Assembly (NCBI GenBank): GCA_000004695.1
Contig: CM000151.3
Location: 1,152,001 to 1,216,000, forward strand
Source of the DNA: Dictyostelium discoideum
Lineage: Eukaryota
Reading direction: 5' to 3'
Length of the DNA: 64,000 nt
Of this stretch, positions 24,734 to 49,187 are shown piece after piece; the first letter of the stretch is position 1, and each line of letters starts with the position of its first letter. The notes beneath the pieces were generated by a model. It made no database searches. It saw only the letters and a list, made by a program, of their open reading frames with translations, and was not told where the DNA came from. The translations under genes were made by a program, and so were the position numbers.

Positions 24734-26544
<1,811 letters not shown>

Positions 26545-41465: not shown

Positions 41466-42641
41466 TTATTTTGGTAGAGAACCTTCTAAAGCTAATAAAG
41501 AAAGGGGATGAATTGGTTTGTTTTTATCAACATAATTGAACCAAATTGTTGGTTCTTTACCACGTAAATTGAATGACGTTAATTGATCTAGTGGCACATA
41601 AATAGCGCCCATACTTTCATAATTTGGAATGAGACGAGGTGGTTGATTTTCATCGATTGGTTCAGCATAAAAAATGACACGCATTCGTGAGTAATTAACC
41701 ATTGGACTAAATTCCACTCTGAGTATACCTTTTAATTCAATGTCAATACCAGTTTCTTCTTTTGTTTCTCTGATAGCACATTGTTGTAAAGCTTCATTAA
41801 CATTTAATTTTCCACCAGGTAACCAATACCCACGACCTGCAGCTTCATTGACTAATAAATAAGTATTATTTGATCTTTTTCTAACTACAACCAAACAAAA
41901 TGCATATATTTTTGAGAGTGATAATTGCTTTTCAGTTGGTGCACCTTTTTCACCATGAGATTCATGTAAATGAACACCCATTCTTTCCATTGGTCTAATA
42001 TTACAAATTGGACATAACGGTATTGAATTTTCAATATCATTTAATGAACAATTACAATGAAATATGAAAATATGTTCCCTAAGATGATCTTGGGATAAAT
42101 TTGTTGCAAATCCACTCTTATGACAAATTGTACATTTAAAATCACCAGATTTATCAATTGATGTAGTTTCAACGATTTTCAATGACTCTATAACATCATT
42201 GATTTTATTTGTAACTAATGAACTACCATTTTTAAATAATTTACATAGAAACATTGGGAATAATTTATCATTAATTTCATCTCTTCTTTTAGATTCCATT
42301 GAAATAGTTGAGTCGTCAATATCAATAAAAGTAACAATGAATGAATTCATTTTTCTCTTTTCTCTATATTCCACAATTGTTTTAGTTTTATTATCTATGA
42401 ACTCCATAATAGAACTCTCATTTGAACTTACTTGTTTATCTATTAAAATATGAATTAAAATTGCAACAATTGGATAATCACTTTTATATTCATTTAATAT
42501 TTTATTAGTTTCATTTTCATCACTACTCTTTATTATCTCTTTAAATTTTCCTTGTTTTAAAAAATTATTTAAAAAATTATCTTTTTGATCTTTTGAACTT
42601 TCTTTATTTGAAAAAAATATTGATTCAATTAATAATGACAT
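41466..42641 (-). CDS. Nudix hydrolase with N-terminal C2H2/C4-type zinc-finger region, single exon, 391 aa
   Basis: The Nudix box is GGKLNVNEALQQCAIRETKEETGIDIE (Gx5Ex7REUxEExGU). The upstream Cys/His cluster is CTICHKSGFATNLSQDHLREHIFIFHCNCS..CPICN. The ATG is at 42641. Confidence 0.75.
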   Translation of the reverse strand: MSLLIESIFFSNKESSKDQKDNFLNNFLKQGKFKEIIKSSDENETNKILNEYKSDYPIVAILIHILIDKQVSSNESSIMEFIDNKTKTIVEYREKRKMNSFIVTFIDIDDSTISMESKRRDEINDKLFPMFLCKLFKNGSSLVTNKINDVIESLKIVETTSIDKSGDFKCTICHKSGFATNLSQDHLREHIFIFHCNCSLNDIENSIPLCPICNIRPMERMGVHLHESHGEKGAPTEKQLSLSKIYAFCLVVVRKRSNNTYLLVNEAAGRGYWLPGGKLNVNEALQQCAIRETKEETGIDIELKGILRVEFSPMVNYSRMRVIFYAEPIDENQPPRLIPNYESMGAIYVPLDQLTSFNLRGKEPTIWFNYVDKNKPIHPLSLLALEGSLPK

Positions 42642-42799
42642 TATATTATTTATTATTATTATATGTTGGGCTGTAACTAAATTTTTTTAAAAAAAAAAAA
42701 AATAAAAAAAACAAAATAAAAAAAAAAAAAAAAAAAGGGTGAGAAAAAATAAAGAAAAAATTAAATTAAAAAATTAAATTAAAAAAAAAGATATTTTCA

Positions 42800-43330
42800 A
42801 ATAATTTTTTAGAACTGAGGAGTATTAGTATACATTCTTTTTCTTTGAACATAATCCTATAGGCACCTGTAACAAAATCAAAACATTGTTTATACTTTTC
42901 ATAAGGTAATGACCAAATTATACCTTGATCTATATTTCTACGAACATCAGCAAAGTCACAAATATGAATTCCGTGTCACTATAATAACTTCCATACATTG
43001 CTTTTGGTATTAACTCCCATGCAACTCTATCTGGACCTTTTATTGAACGGTCAAATTGTACGATCATATGTTTTAACATCAGAGTATAAAAACAGTGAAT
43101 TTTACCACTCTGGTAATGGAGGATAAGTTTTACAAAGCTTTGGCCAGTCATCACATAAATAATCATTTTCGTATGAAAATCACAAAATAAATAAATTGTT
43201 AGGAAATACCTCAATTGAATTCTAGTTTTGTTGAAAAAGTCATTTCATCTGATAATGTTTCATTTATTAATGATTTATGCAAAACAATTAAAATCAATTC
43301 AAATGACGATCACAAAGAAGTGCAGTGTTT
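42800..43330. pseudogene. Cluster of short coding-like fragments on both strands separated by frameshifts; gene remnant(s) of unknown identity
   Basis: The minus strand reads ..FDRSIKGPDRVAWELIPKAMYGSYYSDTEFI then shifts frame to CDFADVRRNIDQGIIWSLPYEKYKQCFDFVTGAYRIMFKEKE. The plus strand at 43233-43330 reads SSFVEKVISSDNVSFINDLCKTIKINSNDDHKEVQC*. The composition is coding-like, but no frame stays open for more than about 95 codons. Confidence 0.35.
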
Positions 43331-43389
43331 ATAAAACAATTAAATAATTTTAAAGAATATTAAAAAAAGGATCATTTTTTTAAATAAAA

Positions 43390-43730
43390 TAAATATAATA
43401 AAGTTTTTGTAAAAAAAAATTTTTAATTATTATTATTTATTTTTTTAAAAATTATTTAATTTTATTTATCATGGTTAATTTGCTTTAACTCTTATGCTTT
43501 AATTTCTTTTGTTAATTTTGAAGCCCACGGACACCAGAAGTAACTATTGAATCATTTATTTATTTTATTTTTAAAAAAAAATATGTTAAATTGTATTTTT
43601 TAATTTTCAAATTTTTATTTAATTGAATACATACCCTGGGAGGAAAGCTATTATTTATTGTTTTATAAATAATAAAAATAGTCATAATAAAAATAATAAT
43701 AATAATAATAATTATAATAATAATAATAAT

Positions 43731-43776
<46 letters not shown>

Positions 43777-43800
43777 GTGGAATTCATTCCCCATCTATTT
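43390..43800 (+). repeat. Dispersed repeat copy 1 (about 350 bp unique part, then an (AAT)n/(ATT)n tail of about 100 bp)
   Basis: This copy shares about 85-90 % identity with 45850..46250. Shared blocks include catggNtaatttNaNtttaactctNatgNttt, ttaattttgaagNccaNggacaccagaagNaactattgaat and tacataccctgggaggaaagctattatttattgtttta, followed by the trinucleotide tract. The two copies lie in the same orientation. Confidence 0.8.
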
Positions 43801-44077
43801 AATGATATTCACCCAAGATTAATTTTTTTTTTTTTAATTAATTATTAAAAAATTAATTTCATTGGCCCCACAAACCAAGATTTCATTTTTTTTTGAAATT
43901 ACATTTTATTAAGCTATAATTAAAATTTCAAACATAATTTATATTTTTTTTTTTTTTTTTTTTTTTTATTCTTCATAAAACAAACTACATTCTTATTAAT
44001 TTACTATACAAATTAATTTCAAATTTAAAAATATGAAATTATTATATTTTATAGTGTTTTTATTAATTGCTTTAAAA

Positions 44078-44157
44078 CTTTGTTTTTCAGAGTATTGCGG
44101 GGAGACTTATCGCAATACTCTGCCCAACAAAGTTTTAAAGCAATTATTAGAAAATAG
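44078..44157. repeat. Near-perfect 80-bp palindrome (inverted repeat with stems of about 34 nt around an 11-nt loop)
   Basis: ttgctttaaaactttgtttttcagagtattgcg-gggagacttat-cgcaatactctgcccaacaaagttttaaagcaatt. The left arm is the reverse complement of the right arm apart from a 3-nt bulge. Confidence 0.85.
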
Positions 44158-44199
44158 AAATTGTTATTCATTTATAGGTTGTAGAAATTAAACATGTTT

Positions 44200-44640
44200 A
44201 TATGAAACAATAGATTTGGAAGATGAAGTTGATTGTACAGTCATGTATCGACTGTTTTGATAGATATGGTGTTAAAAATACTCCAAATGATTCATTATGC
44301 ACCATGTGATATGTTTCTATGTGATACTCAAATTGGTTGTGTTGCTATACCAAAAGCAAATTGTCCAGAACCAAACCAATGTTAAATTCCATTAGTCTGT
44401 AATAGAGAAACTGATATTTGCGAATACGATGAAATTGATTGTGATGATGATAATGAATGTACCAATGACTATTGTGACCCAATAATAGGAGAATGTGTCC
44501 ACTTTTCCAATGATACCATTTGTTCAACTAAAGCAAGTAACTTCTCTAGTTGTTTCCATAGTGGAATATGTGGTGAGTTTGGCTGTAAATTTATAGAAGA
44601 CAGTTGTTAATGATGGTTGTAATCCTTTTGATTTTAATAA
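44200..44640 (+). pseudogene. Frameshifted fragment of a Cys-rich extracellular (EGF/Cys-knot-like) protein
   Basis: One frame reads CDTQIGCVAIPKANCPEPNQC* and then IPLVCNRETDICEYDEIDCDDDNECTNDYCDPIIGECVHFSNDTICSTKASNFSSCFHSGICGEFGCKFIEDSC*. A neighbouring frame reads MKLIVQSCIDCFDRYGVKNTPNDSLCTM*. The Cx(3-5)C spacing resembles the Cys-rich module of the PA14/Psi-like gene at 10.3 kb. Stops and shifts cannot be removed by canonical introns. Confidence 0.4.
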
Positions 44641-45849
44641 GATTTTGTCAACTTTACAAATATTATTAAAAATTTTAATTTTATCTTGATCAGTATGATT
44701 TGAAATGAATGGTTCACTTTTTCTTGATAAAACTATTAATAAATTATCTATTGGTATTGTTGGATTTTTCCAAATTAATCTTACAACTCCAAATTTAATT
44801 CATTTATTTTTGATTTAAAATTTTTTATTCCTTTTTTTTATTATTTTTTTATACATTTTTTTTTTTTTTTTTTTTTTTTCACATTTCAACATTAGCGAAA
44901 AGTAATTCTATGAGGCGCTGGTGGGTTCAATTGAAAAATTTATAACTAAATAAGCTTATTCTAAAGTGAAAACAATAAACAAATATTTTAAAATAAATAA
45001 AATAACAAAATGATTTAAAATTACAAAATAAATAAAATGAAAAAACGATTTTTTATATTCATCTTTATAAACACTTAGTTTATTATTTATTTTCGTCATT
45101 TTAATCATTTTTGTTTTATTATTTATTTTCATCATTTTATAAAAATTATTAGATTAATGGTAAAAAATCAAATGTTATCCAAATTGATTCATCGTTCTTT
45201 GTTAAATTATCACCATCATCAGTTCTACATAATGGAGGTATAATGGACAGGTGGATGAATGGAACAAAAAGTACGGGTATACCCGAACCACTAACAGAAT
45301 CAACGGCGGCACAATTAGTTTCCAACTTTTTGTTTTAGTTTACATCATGGAACCATAACATAACGCATACCAAACTCTGGTTACGTTCTAAATTTAAATG
45401 AACATTCATGAAAATTCTTCTTTTTTTCTTTTGAATCTTTATCTTTTTTACTATTATTATTATTAATTATTATTATTATTTTTATTATTAATAATATTTC
45501 CAAAATAATATTTTTTTTTAATTTATTTTTGACTGGTTTATTTTTTAGGGAATAAAATAAAGTAGTTGGAGTAAAAAAAAAATTAAAAAATTGAAAAAAA
45601 AAAAAAAAAAAAAAAAATAATTCGTGATGATCATCAAATGGTTCATACAGATATAAAACGCACACTTTTAGTTGAAAATGATGGTAGATTCTTTATTGGT
45701 GATTTTGGAAGAGCAAAATAAAAGTAAAAAAAATTATAGTTTAAATAAAAAATAAAACAATATTATATTGTATAAGGAAAATTTTAAATAAAAATAATAA
45801 TAAAAATAATAAAAATAATAATAGTAATAATATATATATGTTTTTTTTA

Positions 45850-46250
<401 letters not shown>

Positions 46251-46279
46251 ATTAGTTTTTAATTAAAAGTTTATATTTT

Positions 46280-46810
46280 TATATGTTAAAATACTTACCA
46301 CCACAGGCCTCATCAAGGTGATCTTCTACATAATTAGTTGTGGCATCACAAACTTCAATAGCCATATTAAAAAATGTGACTGTATCTGGGTCAATAATAA
46401 AGGAATAATCTAAAAGTGATGAAATGAAATTAATAAAATAATTGAATAATAATTGATTAAATCTTAAATAAAAAATCAAAAGAATATTTACGTGGATTAT
46501 AGCTTTCATTTCTCTTTTTAATTCTACCCATTACATGAACTTCATCAGATTCCTCTATTTTAAATATTGTTAGCATATGTATTTATATAAAAAATGATGT
46601 TTATTATTGTTATTATCAATGTTTTATAAATTTTATACTCACTTCCAGACAAAATATCTCTGGCTTTTTTAATTTTTTCTGAATCAGTTAATTTGAAAAT
46701 AAAATCATTATGGTCTCCATAGGTTTTTAAACCAAAATAGGCTGTTTCAGATTGTACCAATAATGAAAATGTTAAAAGAAGAGATAATAATACTAATAAT
46801 AATTTCATTT
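46280..46810 (-). CDS. Small secreted-protein gene (signal peptide) with at least two or three short exons. The 3' end is unresolved and may run into dispersed-repeat copy 2.
   Basis: Exon 1 begins at ATG 46810 and reads MKLLLVLLSLLLTFSLLVQSE|TAYFGLKTYGDHNDFIFKLTDSEKIKKARDILSG. A GTGAGT donor follows. A second exon (ESDEVHVMGRIKKRNESYNP..) has an internal GTAAAT donor and could splice to a third (YSFIIDPDTVTFFNMAIEVCDATTNYVEDHLDEACGG). That third exon ends at a strong GGTG|GTAAGT donor at about 46285 with no obvious partner exon downstream. Confidence 0.35.
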
Positions 46811-47013
46811 TAATATTTTATTTTTTTATTTTATTTAAATTTGTTATTTACAATTGAATAATTATTTGAGAATGAAATAAATTTATTTTTTTCTATTGTT
46901 TAAATAGCTTTAAAAAAAAATAATATTAATAAAAAAAAAATTAATTACTTGAGTGTTTTTTAAACTGTTGGGATGATAAAAACGTAAAATAAATTTAACC
47001 CACTCATGGGGTA

Positions 47014-47059
<46 letters not shown>

Positions 47060-47092
47060 GTAAAAATATATTTTGCTCTTTATAATAATAAC

Positions 47093-47231
47093 AACTGAGG
47101 AAAAAAAATAATCACTTTAAATCTTCCGTGGTTGGATCTGTCAAAAAAAAAAAAAAAAAAAAAAAAAAAATAAAAATAAATATAACTGAGGAAAAAAAAT
47201 AATCACTTCAAATCTTCCGTGGTTGGATCTG
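47093..47231 (+). repeat. Two copies of a 52-bp direct repeat separated by poly(A)
   Basis: aactgaggaaaaaaaataatcact(t/c)taaatcttccgtggttggatctgt occurs at 47093-47144 and 47177-47229 with one mismatch. It has a GC-rich core, cttccgtggttggatctg. Confidence 0.85.
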
Positions 47232-47469
47232 TAAAAAAAAAAAAAAAAAAAAATTAATAAAAAAAAAAAAAAAAATAATAAATATTAATAAAAAATAAAA
47301 GTTAATTGAAATTTTGTAAAATAAAAATAAATATAAAAAAATATTCTTTCTATATTTAAAAAAAAATAAAAAAAATGCAATTATTATTTATCTATGTGGA
47401 AATAAAGAAAACAAAATTTTTTTTGGGCTAATAATTTTATTAAGAATCAAAAAAATTATTTCACCATTA

Positions 47470-47645
47470 ATATTTATTTATCAGATATAGCTTCTAAAGA
47501 AAATAAATGGATTGAAAATCTTGGGATTGGTAATAGAATTACTGTGAATTCCTTTCCTGCATCAAATTTTTCAGTTTCAATTACAAATCTATCATACCAT
47601 TGATAAGTTCTATTTTGATGAAATGTCAAACGAGTAACCATATTT
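47470..47645. repeat. About 170-bp direct repeat, copy A; the paralogous copy B is at 48870..49000
   Basis: About 70 % nucleotide identity with co-linear blocks (aaaatctt..cagtttcaa..acaaatctatcata..accat). Both copies are open in one frame on each strand, e.g. minus-strand MVTRLTFHQNRTYQWYDRFVIETEKFDAGKEF against ..YDRFVFETERFVDTSNL. The two copies flank the oxygenase pseudogene. Confidence 0.6.
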
Positions 47646-48289
47646 TTAATATATAGTAGAATAATTATAATGATAATGATAATTTATAATTATTCTACTA
47701 TATATTAATCTCACGTGTTTTATTATTATTATTATTATTATAATTATTATAATTATTATTATTATTATTATTATTATAATTATTATTATTATTATTATTC
47801 TTTTTAATAATTATTTTTATTGATTTTATATTGAGATTATTATAAATTAAATGACCTTAAAAATTTTTTATTAGCCAATTTTATCATATTAACTTTTGAT
47901 ACCAATTTTATCACATTAAATTCACCCCGCTAGTTTTACCATATTAATTTCAGCCTAAAAATAGGTGCTCTATGCATGCTAAAATTACCGATGTTAGTTA
48001 TTTTTAGTTTTTTATTTTTTTTATACTTCTTTATCAAAAATGATCTTTGGCGTGTGAAGGTTTCATAGAACCAATTGAACAATAAGAAAACTAAAAACCC
48101 AAGATGACCTTTTAAAAGCATTAACTAAATTAACCGAAACTAGAATTTTTTCTTTTAAAATATTTACAATGGAATTTTGCACGTATGTAAATTAAATTTA
48201 TTATTATAATTAATTTAAAAAAAGTAAAAAAATCTAACCTTTTAATTTTATTTTAGTAAATTATTAGAAGAGATTGAAAATTTTAAAAA

Positions 48290-48700
48290 TACAGGAATAC
48301 CAACAGCAAGACCAAACTCTATGAATTATTATGGTGCAGTATACGTTGAAATGAGATTCACCGAATTTTTTAAACAACTTAGAGAAGATTATTTATCATT
48401 ATTCACATCAATTCTATATAAAGATTACAGTGGTGAAAAGTTAAATAGTCATCATGCATTTGCGGTTCAATATAAAATGGATTAAGAAAAAGAATTGATA
48501 AATCTGATATAACTGTAAATTTATGTTTAGGTAGCGAATTCACTGGTGGTTCTTTATACTTTAAAGGAATTTTAGATAAACCTGAAACTCAATAATGAAG
48601 ACTTTGAATTCAAACATATCCCAGGTGTAGCTTTAATTCATATTGGTGTTCATCGTCATGGTGCATTGGGTTTAACAATCAGAGTCAAAATTAGAATAAT
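48290..48700 (+). pseudogene. 2OG-Fe(II) oxygenase (prolyl-4-hydroxylase-like, 2OG-FeII_Oxy_3-type) pseudogene with in-frame stops and frameshifts
   Basis: Consecutive pieces in different frames match the fold's conserved order. They are ..GEKLNSHHAFAVQYKMD* (the HxD region), RIDKSDITVNLCLGSEFTGGSLYFKG (TVLxYLN..GGxLxF), and EDFEFKHIPGVALIHIGVHRHGALGLTIRVKI (distal His and RxS region). Two frame changes and at least 3 stops are present. Confidence 0.55.
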
Positions 48701-48869
48701 AAATAATAATAATAATATTGTACACTCTAATAAACATTTGTACATAAGATGTTTTTTTTTTCTTTTTTTTTAATATTTAATTATACATGTTTTAAAATTA
48801 AATAATTATAATTTATTTTTTTTTTTTTTTTTATTAGTCAATAATAGCCTCAAAGGTCTTTAATAAATG

Positions 48870-49000
48870 GACGTAAAATCTTTCTATTCGTAAAATGAGT
48901 ATTGTAAATTTGAAGTATCAACAAATCTTTCAGTTTCAAAAACAAATCTATCATATATTGAATATTTTGAAATTTGCTGTTACTCTTGTACCATTATTCT
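48870..49000. repeat. About 170-bp direct repeat, copy B (see 47470..47645)
   Basis: Paralogous to copy A, in the same orientation, immediately downstream of the oxygenase pseudogene. Confidence 0.6.
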
Positions 49001-49187
49001 AATTTTGATTTTATTTGAGGTATTATTAAGTCTATAAATTGGTACATGTCAATATTATAGTTTGGTTAAGTTTCCTCTTTTTGAAAAAGTCAATATTTTG
49101 AGTCTCATTATTGGAATTGTTGAACCTGTTGAAATCAGAAAATAATTTTCAAAGAAAAAAAAAAAAAGTTGTATATATTTTTATTTT

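Follow-up and report, generated by a model that had tools for sequence, protein, structure and literature searches.

A near-perfect palindrome in a Dictyostelium discoideum pseudogene as the likely scar of a template-switch inverted duplication

Introduction

Template-switch mutations (TSMs) create hairpins in one step (Loytynoja and Goldman, 2017, PMC5453318; Monttinen and Loytynoja, 2022, PMC8794818; Monttinen et al., 2023, PMC10710096), and template switches have been reported to create new miRNA genes, with an enrichment in introns (Monttinen et al., 2023). The pri-miRNA dimensions described as preferred are a stem of ~35 bp and a loop of at least 10 nt (Monttinen et al., 2023). Template switching is also known to homogenise the arms of existing inverted repeats, both in yeast inverted repeats (Abraham and Hazkani-Covo, 2021, PMC8604942) and in RNA stems (Monttinen and Loytynoja, 2022). 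With regard to small-RNA hairpins, 27 miRNA loci have been described in D. discoideum, two of which (mir-1180 and mir-7102) are intronic, and a T-rich tract lies upstream of the transcription start sites of Dictyostelium pri-miRNAs (Liao et al., 2018, PMC6161686). A further D. discoideum miRNA survey defined miRNAs by a hairpin with mapped 5p and 3p products, precise cleavage and no derivation from another structured RNA, and reported that Amoebozoan miRNAs are almost all recent innovations (Edelbroek et al., 2024, PMC11014262).

In our search of the full-text literature, we found no relevant report on template switching, palindromes or cruciforms in Dictyostelium. A related class of events is formed by the polymerase-theta-type snap-back insertions, in which tens of nucleotides are inserted at repaired double-strand breaks as a reverse-complement copy of the adjacent sequence.

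Here we analyzed a palindrome in a 64-kb stretch of D. discoideum DNA (strain AX4, chromosome 2), the whole of which is called the window hereafter. It is likely the scar of a template-switch (snap-back) inverted duplication, followed by homogenisation of the two arms in one lineage.

Results

An inverted-repeat search returned two arms of 43 nt (44057-44099 and 44111-44153), 88% complementary and 11 nt apart. The core of the palindrome consists of 36-nt arms (44064-44099 and 44111-44146) paired at 33 of 36 positions around an 11-nt loop, and its stem runs through 21 perfect base pairs, a 3-nt bubble (TTT at 44085-87 opposite CCC at 44123-25) and 12 further perfect base pairs. The outermost seven positions of the 43-nt arms, paired at five of seven, are ancestral intron and exon sequence, and their pairing is fortuitous. 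A preliminary description of this DNA had announced a near-perfect palindrome. The sequence that it quoted was found, and its arm length, its loop length and the term near-perfect were all correct; the interval that it gave (44078-44157) lay ~11-14 nt too far right of the core at 44064-44146. The features of the locus are presented in Table 1.

Table 1. Positions of the palindrome, of its host pseudogene and of the surrounding block in the window
Feature	Position	Strand	Content and basis
6.3-kb block holding the palindrome	42814..49137	.	between the Nudix gene DDB_G0272048 and the 700-aa neighbour
T24 run upstream of the ATG	43944..43967	+	inherited from the 5' region of the parent gene; aligned to the L001 T-run
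Exon 1	44033..44091	+	signal peptide MKLLYFIVFLLIALKLCFS and the first 2 nt (GA) of the E codon; tblastn of P0001, spliced translation
Left arm, 36 nt, TAATTGCTTTAAAACTTTGTTTTTCAGAGTATTGCG	44064..44099	+	original sequence, aligns with L001 exon 1 and intron start; last 28 nt of exon 1 (...LIALKLCFSE) and first 8 nt of intron 1, with the GT 5' splice site at 44092-93
Bubble, left side	44085..44087	+	TTT in AX4, GGG in GCA_054883475.1
Intron 1, 93 nt, GTATTG...GTTGTAG	44092..44184	+	boundaries by analogy with L001 give ...CFSEN*TCLYE
Loop, 11 nt, GGGAGACTTAT	44100..44110	+	ancestral intron, homologous to L001 intron GGTCAAACTTAT; unpaired in folds
Right arm, 36 nt	44111..44146	+	derived reverse complement of 44064-44099, within intron 1
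Bubble, right side	44123..44125	+	CCC in AX4 and in GCA_054883475.1
Decayed Dicty_CTDC remainder	44185..44617	+	tblastn in three frames; PF00526; L001 homology stops at 44617

The earlier claim that this structure is far beyond chance, for which folding had been proposed as a check, was borne out by the predicted energies. Folded as RNA, the plus strand gave -48.5 kcal/mol compared to -16.8 +/- 3.0 in 200 shuffled sequences (z -10.7), none of which was as good; the minus strand gave -45.3 kcal/mol compared to -13.4 +/- 3.0 in shuffles (z -10.8). As DNA, the plus strand reached -32.1 kcal/mol compared to -8.1 +/- 2.3 (z -10.4). The arm pattern matched twice in the window, at the two arms themselves, when no match was expected from 100 window shuffles. 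Across the 64 kb, the other matches of similar score in the hairpin scan were (TA)n or poly-A/poly-T pairing throughout; the top score of the window belongs to a pure (TA)n tract of ~400 bp at 25695-26102, which is yet low-complexity. After complexity filtering, the sole match in ~234 kb (the window and related loci) was the copy of the palindrome in a second assembly, GCA_054883475.1, the window's own copy falling narrowly below the cut. Since two independent assemblies, AX4 and GCA_054883475.1, carry the palindrome, it is not an assembly artefact.

We then examined the sequence that holds the palindrome. An ATG at 44033 opens a signal peptide (MKLLYFIVFLLIALKLCFSE...), downstream of which lies cysteine-rich sequence in a shifting frame, with a match to the Pfam family Dicty_CTDC (PF00526) of 29.7 bits for a cut-off of 27. 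The closest protein, P0001, is a 301-aa Dicty_CTDC protein (ACTFIR_004054, E 1.7e-44) from a different assembly labelled D. discoideum. Alignment of P0001 by tblastn placed one TAA stop at 44189-91 and another at 44383-85, frameshifts at about 44243-52 and 44301-04, and a truncation at ~residue 141 of 301. Because of these two in-frame stops, two frameshifts and the truncation, we regard the host gene as a Dicty_CTDC pseudogene, which has the family signature and the signal peptide homology and no intact reading frame. In an annotated near-identical assembly, no gene is called at the palindrome locus. Exact-product look-ups gave no match for the 52-aa ORF across the palindrome, for the Nudix ORF of the window or for the AX4 protein P0003. 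Further alleles were sought in the protein collection with the ORFs of both alleles from either strand, and none was identified. On the minus strand, a mirrored 40-aa ORF at 44049-44171 (...LIIALKLCWAEYC...) mimics the end of the signal peptide; it is a by-product of the inverted copy, with no evidence of coding.

The P0001 locus, hereafter L001, is collinear with the window over 43938-44617 at about 79-80% identity, and serves as an insertion-free comparator that is a paralog from a divergent lineage and not a pre-insertion allele of the same locus. Excising 60 nt from it (L001 10060-10119, GTATTGAGG...GGTTGCAG) yields the exact N-terminus of P0001, ...LKLCFSE/NTTCLYETIDL. As the removal of this intron reproduces P0001, the left arm is bona fide exon and splice-site sequence and not repeat DNA. 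Exon 1, the splice-site sequences and the start of exon 2 (...CFSE/N*TCLYETIDL) are common to the window and to L001, whereas intron 1 measures 93 nt in the window and 60 nt in L001. The alignment of the introns contains a gap of 33 columns with collinear homology on both flanks, where ~37 nt forming the right arm stand in place of ~4 nt (TGCG in L001), for a net gain of 33 nt. The reverse complement of this right arm equals the left arm, 11 nt away, at 33 of 36 positions, and all five differences that set the window's left arm apart from that of L001 are also present in the window's right arm. Because it carries all five of these window-specific substitutions, the right arm was copied locally, after most of the ~20% divergence had accumulated. 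The left arm and the loop are therefore ancestral, and the right arm alone is new. The L001 sequence, which has no insertion, showed no significant fold (-12.7 kcal/mol, z -1.4), and the hairpin arose in one step, as seen from the energies of L001 (-12.7 kcal/mol), AX4 (-48.5 kcal/mol) and GCA_054883475.1 (-63.3 kcal/mol). In principle, L001 could conversely have deleted one arm; the five differences between its left arm and the window's right arm argue against such a loss. A simple local inversion-duplication had been the fallback of the preliminary description, next to three functional proposals (a transposon end, a miRNA-like hairpin and a cruciform site), and it is this fallback that the L001 alignment, the inserted reverse complement and the shared substitutions support.

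The same comparison bears on the proposal, also made in that description, of a transposon terminal structure, that is, of a MITE or of terminal inverted repeats inserted into the block. Two close inverted arms in decayed DNA do resemble such an element, in shape alone. However, the left arm is the ancestral end of exon 1 with its splice site, collinear in the paralog, so that one arm only is new, and a target-site duplication is lacking. Moreover, we found no further copies of the arms in the 64-kb window, in nine related loci (~170 kb, the same locus in GCA_054883475.1 excepted) or in JGI metagenome contigs. We consider a transposon origin extremely improbable and rejected it, the left arm being ancestral exon sequence in L001 and the right arm alone inserted.

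The two assemblies that carry the palindrome differ within it. Over 17.6 kb, GCA_054883475.1 is 99.8% identical to the window, with eight substitutions and some homopolymer-length differences. Three of these eight substitutions are consecutive and fall exactly on the bubble (44085-87, TTT to GGG), and the palindrome of GCA_054883475.1 is perfect over 36 bp (-63.3 kcal/mol, z -14.9). As L001 has TTT on the left side of the bubble (codons F-S / Phe-Ser), TTT is the ancestral left-arm state, and the change would have run from TTT to GGG. Most simply, the right arm would have served as template for rewriting the left arm in the GCA_054883475.1 lineage. By a rough estimate, an independent 3-nt change would hit these very positions with the matching complementary bases at a chance of about (1/17,600) x (1/27), or 2e-6. 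With two assemblies carrying the locus, the TTT/GGG difference may be the nearest that we come to an observed templated event. Alternatively, it could be an error in one assembly, or the perfect palindrome could be the original state, from which AX4 returned to TTT through recombination or ectopic conversion. The window was searched for a sequence that could have templated the CCC of the right arm (CTGCCCAAC), and none was found elsewhere in it, an 8-mer shared with 42664 being within chance; because this CCC has no identifiable template, one untemplated 3-nt change is required in every scenario. The sole further substitutions outside A/T runs between AX4 and GCA_054883475.1 in the 17.6 kb are those at 42669 and 45536 (both G to T). 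The former lies within TGTTGGGC, an 8-mer also present in the left arm of GCA_054883475.1, which is probably a coincidence.

An interaction of the arms in vivo, as the homogenising TTT to GGG change suggests, would also be expected of a functional DNA element, either a cruciform acting as a recombination or replication site or a structured 5' splice site regulating the splicing of the host. The predicted DNA hairpin is indeed stable, at -32.1 kcal/mol (z -10.4), and the GT of the 5' splice site lies inside the stem. Nevertheless, with its stops and frameshifts the host gene is already dead and offers no target for regulation, no comparable structure exists in the intact paralog, and the palindrome is unique and lineage-specific. 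Furthermore, a G+C-rich spacer of 11 nt disfavours cruciform extrusion. Such a role for the palindrome is thus very unlikely.

The palindrome is located in a block of 6.3 kb, on one side of which the minus-strand ORF at 41466-42641 is 100% identical to the Nudix protein DDB_G0272048. The block is a mosaic of rearranged pieces of an importin-4 / OGFOD2-like / BP74_N / CTDC locus, to which they are 77-89% identical; the intact source locus (L009) lies elsewhere in the same genome, beside importin 4 on another chromosome. The block had been described as decayed, and this diverged and reordered mosaic, with an intact source in the same genome, agrees with that description, which had also named the organism correctly as D. 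discoideum. It is present in AX4 and in GCA_054883475.1, and stands in place of ~17 bp of the empty site. In five other assemblies (D. citrinum, D. dimigraforme, D. firmibasis and two divergent 'D. discoideum' assemblies, ACTFIR and ACTFIW), the block is absent at this site and the Nudix gene abuts the 700-aa neighbour. The two assemblies labelled D. discoideum among these five (GCA_054859385.1 and GCA_054859355.1) are ~94% identical to AX4 over the Nudix gene and 85-87% over the neighbour, and the D. discoideum label appears to cover deeply divergent lineages.

Within the block, two copies of the flank of the BP74_N gene (43427-43776 and 45870-46237) are ~86% identical to each other; the block therefore underwent a duplication and then an internal duplication. 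In the source locus of the AX4-like assembly, L009 17025-20373 encodes a 675-aa product with a weak Integrase_H2C2 match, between the OGFOD2-like and BP74_N genes. None of the genes called in L001 corresponds to it, and it looks like a retroelement insertion. The left edge of the block (42843-43479) matches L009 17320-17944, inside the gene of this product. The 10-kb flank of L009 ends before the parental CTDC gene, which is displaced by the retroelement-like insertion. No tRNA genes were found in the window, hence no link to the tRNA-targeted retroelements of Dictyostelium.

A second hairpin of the block, at 47646-47670 / 47684-47708, is perfect; its AT-rich arms (TTAATATATAGTAGAATAATTATAA) are 25 bp long and enclose a loop of 13 nt. 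This hairpin begins exactly at the end of the source-locus homology and may mark a junction of rearranged pieces or a further template switch. The window has no non-trivial hairpins other than these two, which both lie in the 6.3-kb block.

Since the block is a mosaic of reordered source-locus fragments, and since the hairpin at 47646-47708 sits exactly at the end of a homology segment, we considered whether the palindrome could be the junction of a larger inverted rearrangement made when the block was assembled, rather than the product of a later template switch. Three observations argue against this origin, which we judge to be very improbable. The homology to the paralog is collinear across the 33-nt insertion, hence there is no rearrangement junction; the arms are identical at 33 to 36 of 36 positions, whereas the block and its source differ by 11-23%; and the right arm carries substitutions that the left arm acquired later. 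Given this arm identity and these shared later substitutions, the copy is far more recent than the block, barring repeated homogenisation of the arms.

To further evaluate the palindrome as a source of small RNAs, we considered a young miRNA-like or siRNA hairpin gene, in which the pseudogene would be transcribed from its inherited promoter and the stem diced by DrnB/DrnA. In such a case, right-arm RNAs, antisense to the signal-peptide region, would target the parental Dicty_CTDC gene or its family. The palindrome provides a stable hairpin precursor (-48.5 kcal/mol, and -63.3 kcal/mol in GCA_054883475.1), whose 36-bp stem and 11-nt loop are near the preferred pri-miRNA dimensions (PMC10710096). 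The birth of intronic miRNA genes by template switching has a reported precedent (PMC10710096), and two miRNA loci of D. discoideum are intronic (PMC6161686). Upstream, the pseudogene still has the T-run and the parent gene's 5' region, and the perfect stem of GCA_054883475.1 could be read as maintained pairing. The T24 run resembles the T-rich tract of pri-miRNA transcription start sites, in a motif that is too generic to discriminate. If transcribed, the RNA would enclose its 5' splice site (GT at 44092-93) in the stem, a duplex of a size on which Dicer could plausibly act.

In contrast, the hairpin shows no conservation: the paralog lacks it, and sister lineages lack the entire block. The annotated assembly has no gene call at the hairpin. 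The best Rfam match, mir-2024, reached 27.3 bits against a gathering score of 69, and at gathering thresholds no Rfam match was obtained in the whole window. The 21-mers of the arms (every 21-mer of both arms, in DNA letters) were absent from the accessible parts of the text supplements of PMC6161686 and PMC11014262, a weak negative, as RNA-letter terms were searched in part only and the hairpin drawings in these parts split sequences across lines. We consider a small-RNA gene to be unlikely.

Discussion

In our study, we propose that a non-functional copy of a Dicty_CTDC secreted-protein gene acquired, within its intron, a reverse-complement copy of the ~36 nt around the exon 1 boundary, 5' splice site included, 11 nt downstream of the original. 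This copy would have replaced ~4 nt, and a junction of exon and intron that had no structure would at once have become a 36-bp hairpin. Regarding the enzymology of the duplication, we infer a template switch during replication or break repair, in which the nascent 3' end would fold back or move to the complementary strand, copy a short stretch and then return. A templated insertion by polymerase snap-back would be an equally suitable mechanism. Replication and repair lead to the same product and are inseparable from sequence alone. No microhomology was evident at the inferred switch points. The three mismatched pairs may come from errors of that synthesis or from a multinucleotide change that the right arm underwent later. 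A second templated event, in the GCA_054883475.1 lineage, would then have transferred the right-arm state onto the left arm (TTT to GGG) and perfected the palindrome. The locus has the features by which template switches are recognized, namely a local reverse complement, an insertion-free relative with collinear flanks and a local template.

No function is indicated for the palindrome: the host is dead, the paralog is unstructured, the block is lineage-specific, no Rfam family reached its threshold and the arm did not recur in the sequences searched. In this context, it most likely has no selected function. We read the palindrome as an ordinary mutational scar and a clean new example of a known mutation class, in which one event builds a 36-bp hairpin at an exon/intron junction and a second one apparently erases its sole mismatches. 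Long hairpins in AT-rich Dictyostelium DNA thus do not require a transposon end or an RNA gene, and an inverted repeat close by can supply the template for a multinucleotide difference between strains. For annotation, the message is modest: an unannotated pseudogene in a 6.3-kb lineage-specific insertion.

As Amoebozoan miRNAs are almost all recent innovations (PMC11014262), hairpins of this kind are obvious raw material for miRNAs. Counting such events across dictyostelid genomes and comparing them with small-RNA data would bear on the birth of miRNAs by template switching outside animals. It is a distant prospect that the palindrome is itself a newborn small-RNA gene, a template switch in a dead duplicate of a secreted-protein gene having made a Dicer-ready 36-bp stem. 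If this were true, the TTT to GGG change would be a stem repaired in real time in a second D. discoideum genome, and the locus would give Amoebozoa their first regulatory RNA derived from a pseudogene and generated by template switching.

When compared to the known systems, the palindrome shares with the miRNA hairpins of D. discoideum that it is stable, species-specific, single-copy and partly intronic. At 83 nt, it is shorter than the D. discoideum miRNA precursors in the part of the list available to us (about 106-149 nt). Unlike polymerase-theta insertions, it comes without a demonstrable break, microhomology or deletion scar beyond ~4 nt; like these snap-back insertions, its right arm copies adjacent sequence in inverted orientation, with possible synthesis errors. 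The difference between the two assemblies resembles the correction of quasipalindromes, since three adjacent substitutions lying on the mismatches turn an imperfect inverted repeat into a perfect one. The arms of 36 nt exceed the short inverted repeats usually studied in that context, and the direction of the change is read here from the TTT of the paralog alone, with the possibility that one assembly is wrong.

The closest likeness is to TSMs. Unlike in the TSM studies, the outgroup is a paralog and not a reconstructed ancestor of the same locus, and the event is located in a dictyostelid and in a pseudogene. As in TSMs, however, a short stretch was swapped for the reverse complement of a sequence a few bases away, and a near-perfect stem formed from previously unstructured DNA, within an intron. 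With its 36-bp stem and 11-nt loop, the palindrome fits the dimensions described for hairpins born from TSMs.
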